From assembly GCA_003223165.1 (NCBI GenBank), contig QHXZ01000026.1, forward strand, positions 18,827 to 61,385: DNA of 42,559 nucleotides, given 5' to 3'. The DNA comes from Acidobacteriota bacterium. Its GTDB lineage: Bacteria; Acidobacteriota; Polarisedimenticolia; Gp22-AA2. The notes beneath the pieces are model-generated. The model was not told the DNA's origin, did not search any database, and worked only from the letters and a program-made list of their open reading frames with translations. A program made the translations under genes and the position numbers. Shown here piece by piece: positions 13,342-21,523 of the stretch. Within the stretch, counting starts at the first letter, position 1; every line of letters starts with the position of its first letter.

Positions 13342-13425
13342 TGTAGCAGGGATCGCGCCGCCGTCCTCCGCGGCACCGGCTGGATTTCAGGATCGTAACC
13401 GGGGAAGCGATGCCGGGCCGCGAAC

Positions 13426-13453
13426 TTGCGGGATCGCATGCGAAACCTATATT
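13426..13453 (+). promoter_or_regulatory. Putative sigma70-like promoter for the long plus-strand array (TTGCGG - 16 nt - TATATT)
   Basis: This is the only clearly AT-richer patch in the leuS/plus-array divergent region. TTGCGG lies at 13426..13431 and TATATT at 13448..13453. It is a pattern match by eye only. Confidence 0.3.
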
Positions 13454-13491
13454 CGCTTCGCCTGCACAGAGGGCGGAGCGGAGAGCGAGCG

Positions 13492-14649
13492 GTGCGGCAC
13501 CCGGCAACGGCCATCGAGGCGCGCGCGAGGTTCGGCGCGGCGGCGCGGAGGAGCGGGCTCCTCGCCCTGCTGGCCGCGCCCCCCGGCTCCACCTGCCGCG
13601 ATGAGGCCCTGCGCGCGGCGCTGCTGGCGCTGCCGCCAGGCGCCATTCCGTCGCTGCTCGAGCGCATCGCCTTCCACCGCATCGACGGCCTGGCCTGCCG
13701 CGCTCTCGATCGGCTGCCCCAGGAAGGCCTCGACCCCTGGCTGCGCTCCTCCCTGAGGCGGCGCCATCAGCGCTTCGCCGCCGCCACCCTGGCCCAAGGC
13801 ATGGCCCTCGCGGAGCTGCTGGACGATCTGCACCGCCGTGGCGTGCCTGTCGTGGTCATGCGCGGCCTGCGCAGCGTGGAATCGATCTACGGCGACGTCG
13901 GATCGCGGCCCTTCGAGGACCACGACCTCCTGGTCCTCCCCCGCGACCTGGGCGCCACGCGCGACAGCCTTCTTGGGCGGGGCTTCGTCGAGCAGGCGCC
14001 CGGCCTGCTGCGCCGCGGCGGCATGATCGTCGACCTGCACGTCGACCCCCTGGGGGCGCGGCGCCGACCCACGCGCGAGGCGGTCTACCCGATCGCCACG
14101 GCGCCGCTCTTCGAGCGCGCCGAGAGCGTGCGCGTGGCGGGGGCGCCGGCCCTGGCGCTCGGCCTCGAGGACGACCTGCTCTTGCTGGCCATCCACCTGG
14201 TCAAGCATTCCTTCGACCGTCTGATCCGCACCGCCGACCTGGCGCACCTGCTGGCCTCGCGGCGCGACCTCCTCGTCTGGGAGGCGCTCCTGGAGCGCGC
14301 GGCCTCGTCCAACACCCGGCGGCTCCTGGGTTGGGCCCTGGAGGCGGCGGTGGCCCTCGGCGCGCCGGTGCCCGCGGCGCTCCTGCCGCTCGTCGCGCCC
14401 GACAGCCTGGAAGCGGTCCTGATGCACCGGGTCCTCGATCAGCGGCCGGTCCCCTACACGGGAGAGATCCTGATGGTCCTGGCCGCGCCGACCCTCGGCG
14501 CCCGCCTGCGTTTCCTGTGGGACGCGCTGTTTCCCGCCGGCGAATCGGCGGCCGGGCCATGGGAACGGGCCGCCGCGCTCCCTCGCCGGAGCGCCGAACT
14601 GGCCCTGCAGGCGGCTCGTCAGGCCGCCGAGAGGAGGAAGGCACGATGA
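13492..14649 (+). CDS. Uncharacterised nucleotidyltransferase family protein (PF14907/NTP_transf_5-like)
   Basis: The ORF is open from ATG 13426. I prefer the in-frame GTG 13492 because 13436..13460 is AT-richer promoter-like DNA and GGAGAG precedes 13492. Family-like features are HRIDGLACRAL, VVVMRGL...YGDVGSRPFEDHDLLV (D-x-D type NTase core), IVDLHVDP and a helical C-terminal half. The stop overlaps the next start (ATGA). Confidence 0.7.
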   Translation: MRHPATAIEARARFGAAARRSGLLALLAAPPGSTCRDEALRAALLALPPGAIPSLLERIAFHRIDGLACRALDRLPQEGLDPWLRSSLRRRHQRFAAATLAQGMALAELLDDLHRRGVPVVVMRGLRSVESIYGDVGSRPFEDHDLLVLPRDLGATRDSLLGRGFVEQAPGLLRRGGMIVDLHVDPLGARRRPTREAVYPIATAPLFERAESVRVAGAPALALGLEDDLLLLAIHLVKHSFDRLIRTADLAHLLASRRDLLVWEALLERAASSNTRRLLGWALEAAVALGAPVPAALLPLVAPDSLEAVLMHRVLDQRPVPYTGEILMVLAAPTLGARLRFLWDALFPAGESAAGPWERAAALPRRSAELALQAARQAAERRKAR

Positions 14650-14960
14650 CTCCGCCACGCCCCGCGTCGCCCCCGATGCGGCCGTCCCCCGACGTCGTCT
14701 CGCGACGCATCGCCGGCGAGTATCTCCTGGTGCCGGTGTGCAACGGCGCGGCCCAGATGGACTTCATCTTCACCGCCAACGAGGTCGGCAGCGTCGTCTA
14801 CCGCCTGCTGGACGGGCGGCGCGATGCCGCCGAGATCGCCCGGCTCGTCAGCCAGGAGTTCGAGGTGCCGGAGGAGCGCGTCCGGGAAGACGTGGAGGGG
14901 TTCCTCGCGACCCTGCAGGAGGCCGGCCTGGTGCGCCCCGCGGAGCCGGAGCCAAGGTGA
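14646..14960 (+). CDS. PqqD-family protein (RiPP recognition element / peptide chaperone)
   Basis: 104 aa, taken from the tail of track ORF 14331..14960. PqqD pattern: GEYLLVPV...MDFIFTANEVGSVVYRLLDGRRDAAEIARLVSQEFEVPEERVREDVEGFLATLQEAGLV. ATGA overlap upstream and GTGA overlap downstream. Confidence 0.8.
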   Translation: MTPPRPASPPMRPSPDVVSRRIAGEYLLVPVCNGAAQMDFIFTANEVGSVVYRLLDGRRDAAEIARLVSQEFEVPEERVREDVEGFLATLQEAGLVRPAEPEPR

Positions 14961-16270
14961 GCGCCTGCCAGGATGTGTCATACGGCGAGTTCGGCTCCCT
15001 CCTGATGCGCGCCGCCGGCGGGGCGCGGGTTCCGTTGTCGGGATCGATCGAGCTCACCTTCCGCTGCAACCTGCGCTGCGTGCACTGCTACATCCCCGAT
15101 TACTCGGGGCGAGGCGAGATGTCCACCGCCGAGATCACCCGCATCCTCGACGAGATCGCGGACGAGGGGTGCCTGTGGCTGCTCCTCACCGGCGGCGAGG
15201 TCTTCCTGCGCGCCGATTTCCCCGAGATCTACCGGCACGCCAAGCGGCGCGGCTTCCTGATCACGATCTTCAGCAACGGGACGCTCGTCGACGAGCGGCT
15301 CGCCGACCTGCTCGCGGAGTATCCGCCGTTCGGCATCGAGTTCACGCTCTACGGCCTGTCGGACGAGACCTACCTGCGCACCACCGGGTTCCCGGGCCGC
15401 TTCAGCCGCGTGCGCCGGGGCATCGACCTCCTGCTGTCGCGGCGCCTGCCGCTCTCGCTGAAGGCGGTCGCGATGGAGCCGCTGGCGGGCGAGATCGAGG
15501 CGATGCAGGAGTTCTGCGCCGCGCTCGGCGTCCGCTTCCGCTACGACGCCATGGTGCATGGCCGCCTGGATGGATCGCTTGCGCCCACGACGGCGCGCTC
15601 CACCCCCGAGTCGGTCGTGGCCTATGACGCGCGCGACCCCGAGCGTCTCGGCGAATGGCTCAAGTTCTACCGCCAATACGTGGCGCCGACCCGGCCCACC
15701 CCCTACTTGATGTCCTGCGGCGCGGGGGTCAACAGCTTCCACATCGATCCGAAGGGGACCCTCCTGACCTGCGAGGCGCTGCCGCTCAACGGCTACGATC
15801 TGCGGCGCGGCACCTTCCGCGAGGGGTGGTACGGCGTCGCCGCAGCGCTGCGCGAGCGGCTGGCGGGCCCCGAGAACGTCTGCGCTCCGTGCGAGCTGAA
15901 GGCGCTGTGCGACCGCTGCCCGGCGACCGCCACCCTCGAGACCGGCAGCCCGGACGGCTGGATCCCCTACTACTGCGAGGTCACGCATCGCCGCGCCGCC
16001 CTGCTCGAGGAGGCCCTGGATCGCCCCGAGACCGCGGCGCGCTACCGCGCGCACGCAGAGCGCGTGGCCCAAGGCTGGACGCCTCCGGGCGCCATCCTGC
16101 CGCGGGCCAGCGCGCTGCAGGCATCCCCCGCCGTCGCCTGCGGCAGCGGCGGTGGCGCCTGCGCCGGAGGCGGCTGCGGGGCCGGCTCGGGCCGCACCAC
16201 GAATCCGAAACCGATCGCCATTGAGGGTCCCGGCGCGCGTCCGGAGACCGGGAAGGAGGTTGTCCCATGA
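14957..16270 (+). CDS. Radical SAM enzyme with a SPASM-type auxiliary-cluster domain (peptide-modifying maturase candidate)
   Basis: In-frame part of track ORF 14738..16270. The GTG start at 14957 overlaps the PqqD stop; ATG at ~15006 is an alternative. Motifs: CX3CX2C (CNLRCVHC), LLLTGGEVFL (SAM-binding GGE), a SPASM-like region (CGAGVNSFHIDPKGTLLTC ... CAPCELKALCDRC ... YYCEV), and a Gly/Cys-rich tail. Confidence 0.9.
   Translation: MSACQDVSYGEFGSLLMRAAGGARVPLSGSIELTFRCNLRCVHCYIPDYSGRGEMSTAEITRILDEIADEGCLWLLLTGGEVFLRADFPEIYRHAKRRGFLITIFSNGTLVDERLADLLAEYPPFGIEFTLYGLSDETYLRTTGFPGRFSRVRRGIDLLLSRRLPLSLKAVAMEPLAGEIEAMQEFCAALGVRFRYDAMVHGRLDGSLAPTTARSTPESVVAYDARDPERLGEWLKFYRQYVAPTRPTPYLMSCGAGVNSFHIDPKGTLLTCEALPLNGYDLRRGTFREGWYGVAAALRERLAGPENVCAPCELKALCDRCPATATLETGSPDGWIPYYCEVTHRRAALLEEALDRPETAARYRAHAERVAQGWTPPGAILPRASALQASPAVACGSGGGACAGGGCGAGSGRTTNPKPIAIEGPGARPETGKEVVP
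16254..16259 (+). promoter_or_regulatory. Shine-Dalgarno (AGGAGG) for the 63-aa peptide ORF
   Basis: AGGAGG lies at 16254..16259, with a 7-nt spacer before ATG 16267. Confidence 0.6.
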
Positions 16271-16458
16271 AGCGCGACAATCGAGGGGCGGGCGGTGCAT
16301 CCCGCCGGCCATACGAGCCGCCGCTCCTGCGGCGCGTGCGGCTGGTGCCCGACGAGGCGGTCCTGGCGTCGTGCAAGAACAACGCGACGGCAGGCCCGGC
16401 CGGCCCGATCCAGAAGTGCGCCACGAACCCGGCGATCTGCTCGCACAGCGCCTCCTGA
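16267..16458 (+). CDS. Candidate RiPP precursor peptide (63 aa)
   Basis: Sequence: MKRDNRGAGGASRRPYEPPLLRRVRLVPDEAVLASCKNNATAGPAGPIQKCATNPAICSHSAS. It has a consensus SD, its ATG overlaps the rSAM stop (ATGA), and the kinase ATG starts 1 nt after its stop. By my hand count about 57 of 63 codons end in G/C, as in real genes here. The leader has Y16-x-x-P19-x-L21; the C-terminal part has Cys36, Cys51 and Cys58 and ends in Ser. Confidence 0.6.
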   Translation: MKRDNRGAGGASRRPYEPPLLRRVRLVPDEAVLASCKNNATAGPAGPIQKCATNPAICSHSAS

Positions 16459-16459
16459 C

Positions 16460-17407
16460 ATGGCCGCCTCGCTGATCCTCGAGGTCGCCCGCATCGGGCT
16501 GCGCATCGCGGCGCCCGACCCCGCCATCCGGCTGGTGGCCGAGCCGGCGCACAAGCCGTTCCTGGCGCACGACGCCGTGGGGGACTGCGCCTCCGTCCTG
16601 ATCGGGCCGGCCTCCGGGCGCACGGCGCGCCGCGCCCCGGGCAAGACGCTGTTCGAGACCGGATCGGTCTGGCGTCTGGAGGAGCTGGGCGAGAACCATC
16701 TCCTGACCTTCCGCTCGCCGATCTTCGGCAAGGAGCCGTACCTGTCGGTCGAGTTCGACCGCGACTACAGCCGCGGCCAGGGAGAGACCCTCGATGGGGG
16801 GCCGATTCTCGCCGCGGGCGAGCTGCATCCTTTCGTCTACCCGTTCGACGAGGTGGTCTTCCTGGCGCGCCTGTCGCGCGGCCGCGGCGTCCTGGTGCAC
16901 GCCTGCGGCGTGTCCTTCGAGGGGCGCGGCCTGCTCTTCCTCGGGACGTCCGGCGCCGGCAAGAGCACCATGGCGCGCCTGTGGAAGGAGCGGCAGGGGG
17001 TGACGATCCTCTCGGACGATCGGATCGTCATCCGCGCCGACGGGGGCGGCTACCGGATCTTCGGCACCCCGTGGCACGGCGAAGCCGGATGGGAAGCGCC
17101 CGCCTCGGCGCCCCTGGCGGGGGCCTTCATCCTCGACCAGGCGCCGCGCAACGCGGTCGTCGACCTGTCCCCCTCCGCGGCGGTGGCCCAGATGATGGTG
17201 CGTGCCTTCCCTTCGATGTGGGACCAGGAAGGGCTCGAGTTCGCGGTCCGTTTCCTCGCCGACCTGGCGGATCGCGTCCCCGTGCGTCTGCTGAAGTTCC
17301 TCCCGGAACCCACCGCGATCGATCGCGCCCTGGCGGCGCTTCCCCATCGCGGCGGGAGCGTCGGCCCGGATGAATCCGCATACGACGGCACGGAGGAACC
17401 GCGATGA
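16460..17407 (+). CDS. HPr-kinase-related P-loop kinase (HprK C-terminal-domain-like)
   Basis: In-frame part of track ORF 16295..17407, starting MAASLILEVARIG. The core VLVHACGVSFEGRGLLFLGTSGAGKSTMARLW...ILSDDRIVI...IFGTPWHGE resembles the HprK/P catalytic domain and the stand-alone HprK-related kinases of RiPP clusters. Confidence 0.8.
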   Translation: MAASLILEVARIGLRIAAPDPAIRLVAEPAHKPFLAHDAVGDCASVLIGPASGRTARRAPGKTLFETGSVWRLEELGENHLLTFRSPIFGKEPYLSVEFDRDYSRGQGETLDGGPILAAGELHPFVYPFDEVVFLARLSRGRGVLVHACGVSFEGRGLLFLGTSGAGKSTMARLWKERQGVTILSDDRIVIRADGGGYRIFGTPWHGEAGWEAPASAPLAGAFILDQAPRNAVVDLSPSAAVAQMMVRAFPSMWDQEGLEFAVRFLADLADRVPVRLLKFLPEPTAIDRALAALPHRGGSVGPDESAYDGTEEPR

Positions 17408-17841
17408 CTCAAATCCTGGTCGTGGACGACGAGCTGCCGATCCGCGAGGTGCTGATCGAGTTCCTGTCCGATCATGGCTACACGGCCCAGGGGGCCGAGG
17501 ACGGCCCGCAGGCGATCGCCCTGGTCCGCTCCCTCAAACCCCAAGTGATTCTGCTGGACATCGCCATGCCCGGCATGAACGGCATCGAGACGCTCAAGCG
17601 CCTGCGCGAGCAGGCGCCGGGCTCCGCCGTCATCATGATCAGCGGCCACGCCGACCACGAGATGGCCCTCCAGGCGCTCGACCTCGGAGCCTACGACTTC
17701 ATCCAGAAGCCGCTCGATCTCAAGTACCTCGAGCGCACCCTGCTCGCCAAGATCGTGACCCTGGAGCCGGCCGCGGGGCGCGATGCCCAGGAGGAGAGCC
17801 GCAATGCGTCCCACGGCAGCACAGGCCGGCGCGCCCGGTAG
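17404..17841 (+). CDS. Single-domain response regulator (CheY-like receiver)
   Basis: 145 aa with ILVVDDE, LLDIAMPGMNG (phospho-acceptor Asp), ISGHAD and FIQKP (conserved Lys). ATGA overlap with the kinase gene. Confidence 0.9.
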   Translation: MTQILVVDDELPIREVLIEFLSDHGYTAQGAEDGPQAIALVRSLKPQVILLDIAMPGMNGIETLKRLREQAPGSAVIMISGHADHEMALQALDLGAYDFIQKPLDLKYLERTLLAKIVTLEPAAGRDAQEESRNASHGSTGRRAR

Positions 17842-20155
17842 CCAGGCCGCCGCGCCGGCCCTGCCGGCCCTCCTGGCCGACCGCCAGGGCGTGGTCTTCG
17901 TCGCCACCGCCCGCGGCGTGGAGAGCCTGCGGGTGCCGCGGCGCTACTGGGGCACGCAGGTCGGCGTCGTGCCAATCCCCGCGAGCGACGAGGAGATCCG
18001 GGCGGCCGAGCTGGGGCCGCCCCCGGACGCCGGCACCTGGCCCCAGGTCGTGTCCCGCCCCGACCTGCTGGCGCCGGCCCTGTCGCGCCTGGTCTCCGGC
18101 GAGCACGTCGAGCTGAGCCTGCAGCCCGGACGCGACGGGCTCAAGGCCTCGCTCCTGACGGCCCACGGTGACGAGCAGCCTTTCCCGATCGCCCCCAAGG
18201 ACGCGCTGGGCTTCCTGGCGGCGGTCTTCCAGCACGCGCCGCGCGGCGTGGTGACCACCGGCCTCCAGAAGCCGCCGCGCGTGCTGCTGAGCGTGCGCCC
18301 CGCCGTGCGTCGCCACGAGTACCGCCTGCGGCTGGCCGGGGTGGTGGCCGTCGGGCCGCCCTCGACCCTCTCCGACATCGGGCTCTCCCCCGCCGTGCTG
18401 GAGATGGCCCTGGAAAGCCTCGATCGCCTTGCCGGCATCATGCTGGTGTCCGGCGCACCGACATCGGGGCGCAGCACCACGCTCGAGCTGATGGCGGCGG
18501 CCCTCGTGGCGCGCGGGCGCAGGGGCGGGCGGATCGGCGCCCGGCGCCCTGCCTCGAAGGTGGACCTGACGTGGCTGGCCGACGCGGTCCCCGACTGGCC
18601 GTTCCCCGAGAGCCTGCGCGCGGCGGGATCCGACTTCGTGCTGATCGAGACCCTGGAGGGACCTGGCGATCTCGTCCTTGCGGCGCGCCTTGCCGCCAGC
18701 GGCTGCCTGGTCCTGGCCGGGGCGCCGGCGGCGGAGCCCGAGGCGCTGGCCCGCACCGTGGAGCGCGATCTCGAGGCCGGATCGGCGCCGGCCGTCCCGG
18801 TCGTGGTCCTCAGCCAGGCCCTGGTGCGCACCGTCTGCCGCGGCTGCCTGACCTGGCGCACCATCCCCGCCGAAGAGGCGCGCCGCCACCGCTTCCACCG
18901 GCGGGACGTCGAGGAGATGGAGCGGCGCGGCGGCCTGGCCGTGCCGGTCGGAGGGGGTTGCGGCGACTGCGCCGGCACCGGGGCGCTCGGCCTCACCGGC
19001 GTCTTCGAGCAGGTCGGCCCCGACGCCGGCGCCGGCACCCTGCCGCGCCTGCGCGAGGACGGATGGCGCAAGGCATTGCAGGGGATCGCCTGCCTCGACG
19101 ACGTCGCGACCCTGCCTGGAGCGCAGCGGAGCCTGCGCACTCTGCGCGAGATCATGGTGCACGCCGGCCTTGGCCCGGCGGGGATCGAGCTCCCCTCCCT
19201 GGACGAGCGGCGCCGCGCGCCGGCCACAGGGCCGGCGGCGCCGCCCGCCACCCGCGCCTCCCCGCCCGCCGCGCGACGCGAGACCCCGGCCGCCACGCCC
19301 GCCGCCCCGGAAGCCGACCTGCTGGCGCGCCTGCTGCGCGAGGCGGGCGCAGGGACGAAGGTCGACCCACAGGCCCTGCCGCGGCTGGCCGCGACCCTGG
19401 CGGAGCGCGGCGCCGGCCAGGCGTCGCTGCAAGGATCCCTGGCCATCGCCAGGGGGTTCCGCCTCGCCGCGCATGCCGTCAATTCCGCCCTGATCGCGGC
19501 ACGCATCGCATCCTGCCTCGGCTCGGACGTCGATGCTGCGGGGATCGCCCTGCTGGCGCTGGTTCACGACGCGGGGCTCCTCGACGCCGGCGTCGACCCC
19601 GACGCCGACCTCCCCGCGGTCCTTTCGGAGGAGGTCCTCGACCCGAAGGAGGCGCGCCTGGCCCCTTCCGCCGCCCTGCGCCGCCTGGGTCTCGTCGACA
19701 CGGGGCTCGACGGTCTCGTCGGACAGGTGCACGCGCTCCTGCGCTTCGATCCACCCGCGGCCGCCGAACGGGCGCGCGCCGACCTGCGGGCGCAGGTCGT
19801 GGCGCTGGCCAGCCTGGTGGACCTGCACTTCCAGGCCCAGGCGGTCATGGAGCAGCACGGCCGCCGCTTCAACCCTTCGCTGTTCCGCGCCCTGCTGCGT
19901 GCCATTCCGATCTTCCCGATCGGGGCTCTGGTCGAGCTGAGCAGCGGCGATCTGGCGCGCATCGTCTCGCTCAACGAGGACAACCACTTCCGGCCGCGGG
20001 TCGAGATCGCGGCCGCGACCGGCGCCGAGGGGCTGGCGGAGCGGCGCGTTGTGGATCTGGCCCGCGCCCCCTTCCTGCACATCCGCCAGCGCGTCAGCGG
20101 GCTGGTCCCCGGGGCGGTCCCCGCCGCCGCGCCGGCACGGGGAGGCGCGCGGTGA
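17804..20155 (+). CDS. GspE/PilB-family (T2SS/T4P ATPase-like) protein with degenerate catalytic motifs, Pro/Ala-rich linker and a C-terminal degenerate HD-GYP-like domain
   Basis: Track ORF 17783..20155. The start is uncertain: ATG 17783, ATG 17804 or GTG 17891. GspE-like segments: GIMLVSGAPTSGRSTTLELM (Walker A with K replaced by R), SDFVLIETLEGPGD (in place of PDxIxVGEIRD), SGCLVLAGAPA (in place of TGHLVxSTLHT), and the retained tetracysteine VCRGC...CGDCAGTG. The C-terminus has HAVNSA...LALVHDAGLL and the typical tail IFPIGALVELSSGDLARIV, but no HHExxDGxGYP. Confidence 0.75.
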   Translation: MRPTAAQAGAPGSQAAAPALPALLADRQGVVFVATARGVESLRVPRRYWGTQVGVVPIPASDEEIRAAELGPPPDAGTWPQVVSRPDLLAPALSRLVSGEHVELSLQPGRDGLKASLLTAHGDEQPFPIAPKDALGFLAAVFQHAPRGVVTTGLQKPPRVLLSVRPAVRRHEYRLRLAGVVAVGPPSTLSDIGLSPAVLEMALESLDRLAGIMLVSGAPTSGRSTTLELMAAALVARGRRGGRIGARRPASKVDLTWLADAVPDWPFPESLRAAGSDFVLIETLEGPGDLVLAARLAASGCLVLAGAPAAEPEALARTVERDLEAGSAPAVPVVVLSQALVRTVCRGCLTWRTIPAEEARRHRFHRRDVEEMERRGGLAVPVGGGCGDCAGTGALGLTGVFEQVGPDAGAGTLPRLREDGWRKALQGIACLDDVATLPGAQRSLRTLREIMVHAGLGPAGIELPSLDERRRAPATGPAAPPATRASPPAARRETPAATPAAPEADLLARLLREAGAGTKVDPQALPRLAATLAERGAGQASLQGSLAIARGFRLAAHAVNSALIAARIASCLGSDVDAAGIALLALVHDAGLLDAGVDPDADLPAVLSEEVLDPKEARLAPSAALRRLGLVDTGLDGLVGQVHALLRFDPPAAAERARADLRAQVVALASLVDLHFQAQAVMEQHGRRFNPSLFRALLRAIPIFPIGALVELSSGDLARIVSLNEDNHFRPRVEIAAATGAEGLAERRVVDLARAPFLHIRQRVSGLVPGAVPAAAPARGGAR

Positions 20156-20803
20156 GCGCCGCGCGGGTCGCGGCCGACGAGACGATCGAGCGTGAGGCCG
20201 CCCCGGTGCTCGAGGCGCTGCTCGAGGAGGGGCACCTCGCCTCCGTCCCGGTGCGCGGCGCGAGCATGCGGCCGGCGCTCCTGGACGGGGACCTGGCGCT
20301 GGTCTCCCCCTTCCTGGGGCTGCCCGTCCCCGGACAGATCGTCCTGGCGCGGCAGGCGGGGAAGCTGGTGGCGCACCGCCTGGTCGGCGTCGAGATGCGC
20401 GCGGGCCGGCGCCTCTATCGCCTCCAGGGCGACGCCGAGCCGGCGCCCGATCCCGGCCTGCTGCGCGAAGATCTCCTCGGGCGCGTCGGCGCGGTCATCC
20501 GCCAGGGCCGCCGCCTGCCGCTCGAGGACGGCCCTGTCACCCTCGTCCGGCTGCGCCTGCTTCGCGCGCTCCGGAGGCGCGGCGCGCTCCTGCTCGCGGC
20601 GGCCCTGCTGCTGGCGGCGGCGCTCGGCTTCGCGCGCTTCGCGGCGGCCGACCAGGAGGCGACCGTGGCGCCCTCCCTCGATTACCGCTTCGCGGCGGGC
20701 GACGTGCTCAGCCTGCGCATCTGGAACGGCGAGCGGATCGACGAGCAGAAGCTGACGGTGCAGAGCGACGGCGAGGCCTTCCTGCCGATCATGGGGATCG
20801 GCG
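20152..20803 (+). CDS. S24/S26-family Ser-His type peptidase domain, followed in frame by a signal-peptide/TM-like segment and the N-terminal part of a Poly_export (Wza/OPX) domain
   Basis: Tail of track ORF 18571..21069, with a GTG start overlapping the previous stop (GTGA). Peptidase motifs: VPVRGASMRPALLDGDLALV (GxSMxP), KLVAHRLVG (His where P-type SPases have Lys, as in SipW/Sec11-type) and LQGDAEPAPD. Then comes RRRGALLLAAALLLAAALGFARFAAA, then Poly_export-like LDYRFAAGDVLSLRIWNGE...VQSDGEAFLPIMGIG. Beyond ~20803 this frame turns into G/A/P/R-rich nonsense up to its stop at 21069. Confidence 0.6.
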
Positions 20804-21523
20804 CTCGTCGAGGTCAAGCAGGCGCTGGAGCAGAAGCTCAAGGGTATCTACAAGGAGACCCACGTGGAGCTCCTGGTGACCAAGTTCGGCGGCCACCTGG
20901 TGCACCTCATGGGGGAGGTGCGCACCACCGCGCGCACCGACAGCGGCCCCGGCGAGTGGGCCCTGCGCGGCCCCACGCGCCTGGTGGGCTTCCTGTCGGA
21001 CCACGGCGGGCCGGGAACGGACGCCGACCTGATGCGCATCCTGCTGGTCCGGCCGGGCCAGAGGCGTGAGGTGAACCTGTTCCGGGCCGTCTTCCAGGGC
21101 GCGGAGGAGGACGATCCCTGGCTGGAGTCGGGCGATCTCGTCTTCGTCCCGTCGCAATCGATGGGCAACCGCAAGGTCTTCGTGCTCGGCGAGGTCAATA
21201 CGCCCGGAGTCATCAACATCCTCGACAAGATGGGGCTCGTGGAGGCGATCGCGCGCGCCGGCGGCTTCACGCAAAGGGGTTACATGAAGGGCGTCGTGGT
21301 GCTCAAGCGCGGCGTGGACGGCCAGGCCGAGATGCGGGTGGCCAACTTCAAGCAGATGGTCAAGGAGGGGGACCTGAGCGCCGACGTCCCGCTGCAGCCG
21401 GGCGACATCGTCTTCGTGCCGCGCCGCGCCATCGCCACCCTGCAGGAGCTCTTCTCCATCATCAACCCGGCCCTCGGGATCATCGAGTCGATCTACATCA
21501 TCGACAATTTCAGAAAGCAGTGA
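20804..21523 (+). pseudogene. Remainder of the Wza-like outer-membrane polysaccharide export (OPX) protein, in the +1 frame relative to its N-terminal part (frameshifted gene or sequence error)
   Basis: Track ORF 20864..21523 begins at a GTG, but this frame already reads LVEVKQALEQKLKGIYKETHVELLVTKFGGHLVHLMGEV from ~20804. That is the expected continuation of Poly_export. SLBB-like segments follow: VFVLGEVNTPGVINI, LVEAIARAGGFT, GDIVFVP. This frame has a TGA at 20753..20755. Confidence 0.75.

Follow-up and report, generated by a model that had tools for sequence, protein, structure and literature searches.

A catalytically degenerate PilB/GspE-HD-GYP fusion protein encoded with exopolysaccharide export genes in uncultured Acidobacteriota

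The stretch of DNA analyzed here, referred to as the window, covers 42,559 nucleotides of contig QHXZ01000026.1 (positions 18,827 to 61,385 of the forward strand, assembly GCA_003223165.1) from an Acidobacteriota bacterium of the class Polarisedimenticolia. On its plus strand, an open reading frame (ORF) of 790 residues (17783..20155, from an ATG at 17783) encodes a protein, hereafter the fusion, that descends from a zinc-containing ATPase core of the PilB/GspE type, an HD-GYP domain and a small β-barrel. The fusion fails the catalytic criteria of both parent families although it clearly descends from them, and its fold, its zinc site, its GxxxxGR[S/T] loop and above all its barrel are under strong constraint. 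It is conserved, lineage-restricted to uncultured organisms and undescribed in the literature searched, where full-text queries on GspE/T2SSE together with HD-GYP returned MshEN and general cyclic-di-GMP (c-di-GMP) papers and no such fusion. From its anatomy and gene order, we lean towards a role as a non-catalytic regulator, adaptor or scaffold of the Wzx/Wzy exopolysaccharide (EPS) machinery encoded downstream. The new elements are the tally and repeated loss of the CheY-like receiver encoded just upstream, a less degenerate sister clade, a graded series of HD-GYP motifs, the finding that the GxxxxGR[ST] loop is kept, a profile of conservation by domain and the place of the C-terminal tail in a large canonical HD-GYP subfamily. 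An initial annotation made from the sequence preceded this analysis.

The initial annotation had aligned the large ORF by eye with secretion and pilus ATPases, and Pfam, phmmer, profile and Foldseek searches agree on this assignment. Pfam T2SSE (PF00437) matches the window protein just significantly (26.2 bits for a cut-off of 24.9), the NCBIfam GspE/PilB equivalogs return 1e-7 to 1e-5, far under their cut-offs, and phmmer against PDB chains reports Thermus PilF (E 1e-10). A profile of 65 family members reports PilF (3e-26), GspE (5e-21) and PilB (1e-14), these matches beginning at profile positions 158-183. The full-length AlphaFold2 (AF2) model of the fusion has a mean predicted local distance difference test (pLDDT) of 88.4, and Foldseek aligns it with the N2 plus C-terminal cores of PilF, PilB and GspE over ~390 columns (best hit 5oiu, E 3.6e-19). 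The homologous core, as represented by PDB entries 5oiu, 5it5, 4pht and 5tsh, comprises two domains. Counting residues from ATG 17783, as throughout, the N2E-like domain of GspE/PilB ATPases covers residues 90-190 (18050..18352; Foldseek and profile) and the C-terminal ATPase-like domain with degenerate motifs covers residues 195-445 (18365..19117; HMMER, profile and Foldseek). They are preceded by a small β-rich domain (residues 28-85; 17864..18037; AF2 secondary structure) that returns no Pfam match at E<=1 and is confined to the focal clade, to which the window belongs; the distant fusions described below begin at the N2 domain. The proposal that c-di-GMP is sensed through a GspE N-domain found no support, since T2SSE_N/MshEN (PF05157) does not match at E<=1, the translated sequence shows no RLG motif and the model has a β-rich N-terminus.

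Every catalytic signature of the ATPase core is altered in the HMMER alignment with PilF, which places the motifs identically to the by-eye alignment. The Walker A motif (G224APTSGRS231; nt 18452-18475) reads GAPTSGRS for GPTGSGKS in PilF. The claimed replacement of its lysine by arginine holds, while the claim of a broken glycine pattern does not, GxxxxG being intact (G224-APTS-G229-R-S). Across the family, Walker A reads (S/A)GGxxSGR(S/T)TT, with R230 in 62, G224 in 60 and G229 in 64 of the 65 members. The generic GxxxxG-[R]-[ST] spacing is thus kept, and only the lysine and the extra T2SSE-specific glycines are changed, as expected of a loop that holds a phosphate yet is unable to hydrolyze. 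The PilF Asp box EDPVE aligns with G-ARRP in the window, so that the Asp box is absent, and it is replaced by G-x-R across the family. Further along, DPDIIMVGEIRD of PilF faces GSDFVLIETLEG, and PilF GEIRD faces ETLEG, the catalytic glutamate being gone. The Walker B region reads FVLIE289-T in the window and PDFVLV(E/D)-R/T/H-LEG in the family; the catalytic Glu position is never acidic, and position 289, at the strand end and one residue before the lost glutamate, is E/D in 65/65. For the His box, TGHLVIATLHTN of PilF aligns with SGCLVLAGAPAA, neither histidine being present across the family, and GTGYKGR is matched by GTGALGL (GYxGR has become GxxGL family-wide). In the same alignment both CxxC pairs coincide: the tetracysteine zinc motif C352-x2-C355 ... 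C393-x2-C396 (18836..18970), reported as kept by the initial annotation, is invariant in 65/65. This motif is typical of the extension/secretion subtype of PilB/GspE and marks descent from it. Given these column counts over 65 members, the loss of the catalytic motifs is family-wide rather than private decay.

The ATPase-like core is followed by a Pro/Ala-rich linker (residues 446-507; 19118..19303) that is poorly conserved (mean column identity 0.41) and predicted to be disordered at 482-500, and then by a degenerate domain of HD-GYP lineage (residues 508-707; 19304..19903), assigned by Foldseek, profile and alignment. A separate model of residues 530-790 (pLDDT 87) returns Foldseek top matches that are all HD-GYP proteins, Bd1817, DvhD and PmGH (prob 0.8-1.0, E 0.02-0.4), with SadB lower. 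The E-values overall are modest at 0.02-0.7, statistics that are weak on their own. Direct sequence routes failed or were weak: the C-terminal profile reports nothing at E<=10 against PDB sequences, and hhalign of this profile against ten tail-less canonical HD-GYPs from this and related genomes gives a collinear but weak alignment (E 0.012, probability 3.5%). The HD-GYP link was therefore made through tail-bearing HD_5 intermediates. In an exhaustive profile search, positions ~444-775 of the family profile match proteins of 330-650 residues at 1e-21 to 1e-26; all ten of those scanned match Pfam HD_5 (PF13487), some with DUF3391 or a fused receiver, and the aligned HD_5 relatives carry the same C-terminal barrel as the fusion. 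One of these tail-bearing proteins, P0138, matches three active enzymes (V-cGAP3, PmGH and PA4781; 1e-25 to 1e-17), and in another relative, P0134, a receiver is fused directly to the HD_5-plus-tail module. Pfam HD is matched in 17/19 family members (best 1e-7). Weak matches to HDOD (PF08668) in 14/19 members (best 8.6e-5) are probably cross-hits, since genuine HD_5 proteins match likewise at H...LLHD, and collinearity and the shared tail favor HD-GYP.

The initial annotation had described an HD-GYP-like domain with H...HD and a characteristic tail but without HHExxDGxGYP, and Foldseek, the HD_5 intermediates and the multiple alignment all bear this out. In the window, H564 and H595-D596 are kept (LALVHDAGLL is present). 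Five of the eight metal ligands of HD-GYP domains have disappeared throughout the clade; the third His, HHE and the last Asp are gone, as is the GYP motif. The lost-ligand positions read L/A, Q/V-H-A (variable) and S in the focal family, the last Asp being Ser, Cys or Ala; the segment aligned with HHExxDGxGYP is QVHALLRFDPPAA in the window and varies within the family. The multiple alignment yields a graded series, from canonical HD-GYPs (H, HD, H, HHE..DGxGYP, D) through tail-bearing HD-GYPs (QEHERxDGSGYP) and the distant fusions (QVHERxSGxGFP, remaining ligands kept) to the focal family. With five of the eight ligands lost, canonical dinucleotide binding by the HD domain of the focal clade appears doubtful. 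The window copy also lacks, after residue ~683 (~19830), a stretch of 13-14 residues, with a nearly invariant Asp, that each of the 64 relatives in the alignment has (consensus ...H-GPGxRPADLHDVTS...); the AF2 model folds confidently at this site. The degeneracy of both halves of the fusion is thus real and family-wide: a proper profile alignment, named beforehand as the check on the by-eye reading, finds the catalytic residues altered and similarity to both GspE and HD-GYP families. Elsewhere, the genome of the window encodes five canonical HD_5 domains (contigs C195, C88, C14 (two) and C138), indicating that c-di-GMP turnover is present in the organism. At least one of these, on C195 (locus L008), has a full HHERWDGSGYP motif and a long C-terminal extension, which in a relative of the same architecture (G026) ends in a GGDEF-type domain.

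The C-terminus of the fusion carries the IFPIGALVELSSGDLARIV tail, which the AF2 model and conservation delimit as a five-stranded small β-barrel (residues 712-772; 19916..20098). These 61 residues are the most conserved part of the protein (mean column identity 0.80), being 74-79% identical in members whose remaining domains are 33-51% identical. A barrel of ~60 residues follows HD_5 in many proteins (including P0128-P0151), with the consensus FPVGS.V.L..G..A.V....N..RP.V.......G........DL...P.(L/I)YI. No Pfam model and none of the solved structures matched in this analysis cover it: the alignments of P0138 to solved HD-GYPs end where the barrel starts, and in none of the solved HD-GYP structures retrieved does the best-matching stretch extend over the tail. 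The twelve best-matching canonical HD-GYP genes of this genome and its relatives are without the tail, which is thus a subfamily feature rather than a universal one, and it marks a large HD-GYP subfamily. The Pfam families returned at E<=1 for 19 C-terminal modules do not include PilZ (PF07238), and a PilZ-like reading of the barrel (RALLR ... ELSSG) was rejected on this ground and because RALLR is not conserved in the tail-bearing relatives.

The reading frame of the fusion (ORF list, third-codon-position GC content and AF2 model) has a third-position GC content of 0.92, which indicates that it is coding. Its true start is probably ATG 17804 (Met8, 783-residue product), because a Shine-Dalgarno sequence, AGGAGGAGA, lies upstream and an identical database protein (P0003, 783 residues) begins at Met8. 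Upstream, on the same strand, lies the gene of a single-domain CheY-like receiver (REC) of 145 residues (17404..17841), identified by Pfam Response_reg (PF00072, E 4.3e-32) and by the pocket residues: the phospho-acceptor pocket read from the translation is complete, with acidic D8/D9, the phospho-acceptor D52, S80 and K102. The probable overlap between this intact receiver gene and the fusion gene, suggested by the initial annotation, is seen in the ORFs and amounts to 38 nt from start 17804, with an equal overlap in a 65%-identical homologous locus. The receiver start at 17404 in turn overlaps the stop of an upstream ScmC/HprK-like kinase by 4 nt (ATGA), and the stop of the fusion overlaps the GTG of the next gene by 4 nt (GTGA at 20152). 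With overlapping junctions on either side, the fusion gene is tightly packed into the operon, and it is translationally coupled into it.

A word-indexed search returns 87 protein clusters of 41-66% identity, most of them called 'hypothetical protein' and almost all belonging to a single family-level clade, and the degeneracy extends over these clusters; the named clusters are nearly all from Acidobacteriota/Polarisedimenticolia metagenome-assembled genomes. The gene occurs in 24 of the 119 species genomes of the class, 23 of which belong to the family-level clade of the window (29 genomes), and the genome of the window holds a single copy. More than 20 intact fusion ORFs are found in species-representative genomes, and together with the high model confidence and the invariant columns these orthologues rule out a pseudogene or decay. 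Five distant fusions of 670-750 residues, ~26% identical to that of the window, match T2SSE at 1e-23 and HD_5 at 3e-25; all five share the Lys-to-Arg change in the P-loop and have a nearly intact HD-GYP, and two of them are placed in uncultured Acidobacteriota genomes. A 967-residue frame in one locus (L030, G016:C188) contains fusion residues ~90-255 (the N2 and P-loop region) twice, as a result of either internal tandem duplication or mis-assembly.

The gene order around the fusion is constant in the focal loci with enough sequence. NTP_transf_5, PqqD, radical SAM/SPASM, a 63-residue Cys-rich peptide and the ScmC/HprK-like kinase precede the receiver, where present, and the fusion, which is followed by S24::Poly_export/SLBB (Wza), a Wzc-type kinase, Wzy_C, a flippase and glycosyltransferases. 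Genes for pilins, PilC/GspF or a secretin are absent from the surroundings, the neighbors being the cassette of radical SAM, PqqD and ScmC-like genes, the receiver and the export genes, and a scan of the operon genes turned up no platform partner of the PilC/GspF type. In the window, the upstream cassette, which resembles those for ribosomally synthesized and post-translationally modified peptides (RiPPs), lies at 13399-17407 and includes PqqD (14646-14960) and the HprK/ScmC-like P-loop kinase; its peptide (16267-16458) is conserved, with 63 residues, three Cys and a Ser at the end. The cassette is kept with the fusion in the focal loci, and it is placed elsewhere or undetected in distant loci. 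On the other side, the S24-peptidase::Wza gene (Poly_export/SLBB; 20152-21523), a single ORF of 467-469 residues in relatives, is split in the window into 20179-20805 (frame +1) and 20795-21511 (frame +2), with ~4 residues missing at the junction; this break would be a genuine frameshift or else an error of the assembly.

Among the distant loci, three arrangements occur. One is REC-fusion-(FG-GAP)Wza-Wzc-Wzy-Wzx-glycosyltransferases, with no peptide cassette detected (8 kb each side in L042; <1 kb upstream in L021), another is fusion-170 residues-Wza-Wzc-Wzy-Wzx, and the third is REC-fusion-NTP_transf_5-PqqD-radical SAM. The order REC-fusion-Wza-Wzc-Wzy-Wzx is therefore common to clades whose fusions are only ~26% identical, and it is this persistence of synteny that ties the fusion to EPS export, in agreement with the link to the downstream polysaccharide-export genes drawn by the initial annotation. 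In L042, L019 and L021, the adjacent Wza, Wzc and Wzy share 41-47% identity with their window counterparts for ~26% in the fusion, which thus evolves faster while keeping its place; its rate is roughly twice that of the accompanying export machinery. The receiver lies directly upstream of the fusion in 12 of the 20 determinable focal species loci and in 3/4 distant ones. When mapped onto a maximum-likelihood tree of the fusion, it occurs in both deep branches and in the outgroup, which makes it ancestral and repeatedly lost, its distribution needing about five changes, of which at least two are forced by well-supported branches.

If we assume that the fusion is a regulator or adaptor of the downstream Wzx/Wzy machinery, its PilB-like core would act as a non-hydrolyzing scaffold, possibly nucleotide-binding and ring-forming, locked in one signaling state. 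That the Arg P-loop and the acidic residue at the strand end are conserved suggests that nucleotide is still bound without being turned over. Where present, the phosphorylated CheY-like receiver may dock on this core, an arrangement that mirrors the REC-HD-GYP regulators in which both parts are fused. The HD-GYP remnant and the barrel could form an output or partner-binding module facing the export machinery, and so strong a conservation of the barrel suggests that its partner or ligand is fixed. The HD-GYP part of the less degenerate sister clade has probably remained able to sense or hydrolyze a cyclic dinucleotide, an input that the clade of the window would have given up. A bolder and rather improbable extension is that PilB-derived pseudo-ATPase/HD-GYP fusions are unrecognized cytoplasmic gatekeepers. 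A ring-forming dead motor would dock on Wzc/Wza and hold export on or off, its state set by phospho-CheY and, ancestrally, by a cyclic dinucleotide read by the HD-GYP domain, with the barrel as the coupling element. The graded series would then record the stepwise conversion of an enzyme pair into a pure adaptor.

Several observations weigh against a role in EPS regulation as formulated above. Gene order shows a link to a locus, not a target, and in the focal clade the fusion gene is as tightly linked to the upstream RiPP-like cassette as to the export genes. Of the 20 focal loci, 8 lack the receiver, and its loss about 4-5 times on the tree means that it cannot be essential to the mechanism. 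Regarding the C-terminal half, no Pfam or NCBIfam HD model matches the window's own sequence, the folded part with the lowest conservation in the focal family is the HD domain (mean column identity 0.56), and the 13-14-residue deletion is private to the window copy. Finally, the downstream S24::Wza is frame-broken in the assembly, and the locus may not function in this genome.

Other readings distribute these observations differently. A refinement of the favored role, clearly less probable than that role itself, makes the fusion a nucleotide or cyclic dinucleotide receptor in which a ligand (ATP/ADP, c-di-GMP, 3'3'-cyclic GMP-AMP (cGAMP) or pGpG) bound at the GxxxxGR[S/T] loop, the HD remnant or the barrel switches EPS export. 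Lys-to-Arg P-loops classically retain binding and lose hydrolysis, and here arginine replaces lysine, without drift, in 62/65 members as well as in each of the five distant fusions; E/D289 is 100% conserved. The sister fusions moreover retain most HD-GYP ligands (QVHERxSGxGFP), HD-GYP relatives bind c-di-GMP or cGAMP, and the five canonical HD_5 domains of the genome imply c-di-GMP turnover in the cell. However, the Asp box, which holds Mg2+, is gone, only H...HD is left of the eight HD-GYP ligands, the HD domain shows the lowest conservation of the folded domains, and neither an MshEN match nor, among the Pfam families of the C-terminal modules at E<=1, a PilZ domain is found. The retained loop shape, the strand-end acidic residue, H...HD and the strong purifying constraint on the core could also be read as signs of a surviving enzyme, either a slow or atypical NTPase that uses the Arg P-loop and E/D289 to power a step in the export of polymer or peptide, or an HD phosphohydrolase with one metal. 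This is very unlikely, as the whole family has lost the lysine, the Asp box, the catalytic Glu and the two His-box histidines together, the HD-GYP part is short of five of its eight ligands, among them the Asp that ends the minimal HD motif, and the operon genes scanned include no PilC/GspF-type platform partner.

Two further alternatives turn on the neighboring genes. The fusion could belong to the RiPP-like peptide pathway, scaffolding or regulating the radical SAM protein, PqqD, the ScmC-like kinase and the nucleotidyltransferase, or acting on a phosphorylated peptide through its HD remnant, HD domains being phosphohydrolases. It directly follows the ScmC-like kinase, or does so via the receiver, in every focal locus, and NTP_transf_5, PqqD and radical SAM genes come after it in one distant locus. 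We nevertheless consider this distinctly unlikely: in L042, L019 and L021 the fusion adjoins Wza-Wzc-Wzy-Wzx with no cassette gene detected (within 8 kb on either side in L042, 2 kb upstream in L019 and 0.9 kb upstream in L021), L006 and L039 have REC and fusion with no cassette upstream, and the HD remnant is missing its last Asp along with the other metal ligands. It is likewise improbable, if slightly less so, that the receiver acts on another target, such as an initiating phosphoglycosyl transferase, and that its adjacency to the fusion reflects operon packaging. The action of EpsW on EpsZ (PMC12802240) provides a precedent, and the receiver is repeatedly lost while the fusion is kept; yet REC and fusion are adjacent, with overlapping genes, in both deep branches and in 3/4 distant loci despite differing context, and canonical relatives such as P0134 fuse REC to the HD_5-plus-tail module.

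The architecture of the fusion differs in many aspects from that of the known systems it resembles. As compared with PilB, PilF and GspE, it has Arg for Lys in Walker A, lacks the Asp box, the catalytic Glu and the His-box histidines, is devoid of an MshEN/N1E-type N-domain, and is joined to an HD-GYP-derived module inside a Wzx/Wzy EPS operon. With the HD-GYP phosphodiesterases (RpfG, PmGH 4mcw, PA4781 4r8z, V-cGAP3 5z7c), it has the helical HD fold and H...HD in common, but its domain is without the third His, HHE, GYP and the final Asp, and is attached to a pseudo-ATPase; Bd1817 (3tm8), PA2572 and SadB (9qzk) are degenerate HD-GYP members for comparison. As in RpfG-type regulators, a receiver is the associated input, encoded by a separate gene beside the fusion and fused in P0134. 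A functional precedent is the PilB protein of Myxococcus xanthus, an EPS-regulating signaling protein (Black et al. 2017, PMC5544727; Dye & Yang 2020, PMC6957770) that controls EPS independently of ATP hydrolysis, its nucleotide-free form being the active signal (PMC5544727). There too, an EPS pathway is tied to receiver-domain signaling, as proposed for the fusion. However, the M. xanthus protein is a pilus motor with full activity that carries MshEN c-di-GMP sites and acts via the Dif pathway, whereas the fusion is a dedicated, hydrolysis-dead paralogue encoded in the EPS operon, with a putative regulatory role. In the EpsW-EpsZ system, a response regulator with a single domain switches on a Wzx/Wzy pathway post-translationally (Schwabe et al. 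2025, PMC12802240). Like EpsW, the receiver of the window stands alone and is encoded with a Wzx/Wzy EPS locus, and regulation is expected at the protein level. In contrast to EpsW, it is paired through overlapping genes with the fusion rather than with a phosphoglycosyl transferase, and it is dispensable in several lineages.

Acidobacteriota are major slime producers in soil, with almost no genetics, and to our knowledge protein-level switching of Wzx/Wzy exopolysaccharide export is known for only a few model systems. In this setting, a conserved double pseudo-enzyme embedded in an operon suggests a new regulatory solution, in which the relic of a pilus motor is reused as a signaling scaffold. 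With its progressively inactivated relatives, it may become possible to tell the features of PilB-type and HD-GYP proteins that serve signaling from those that serve catalysis.

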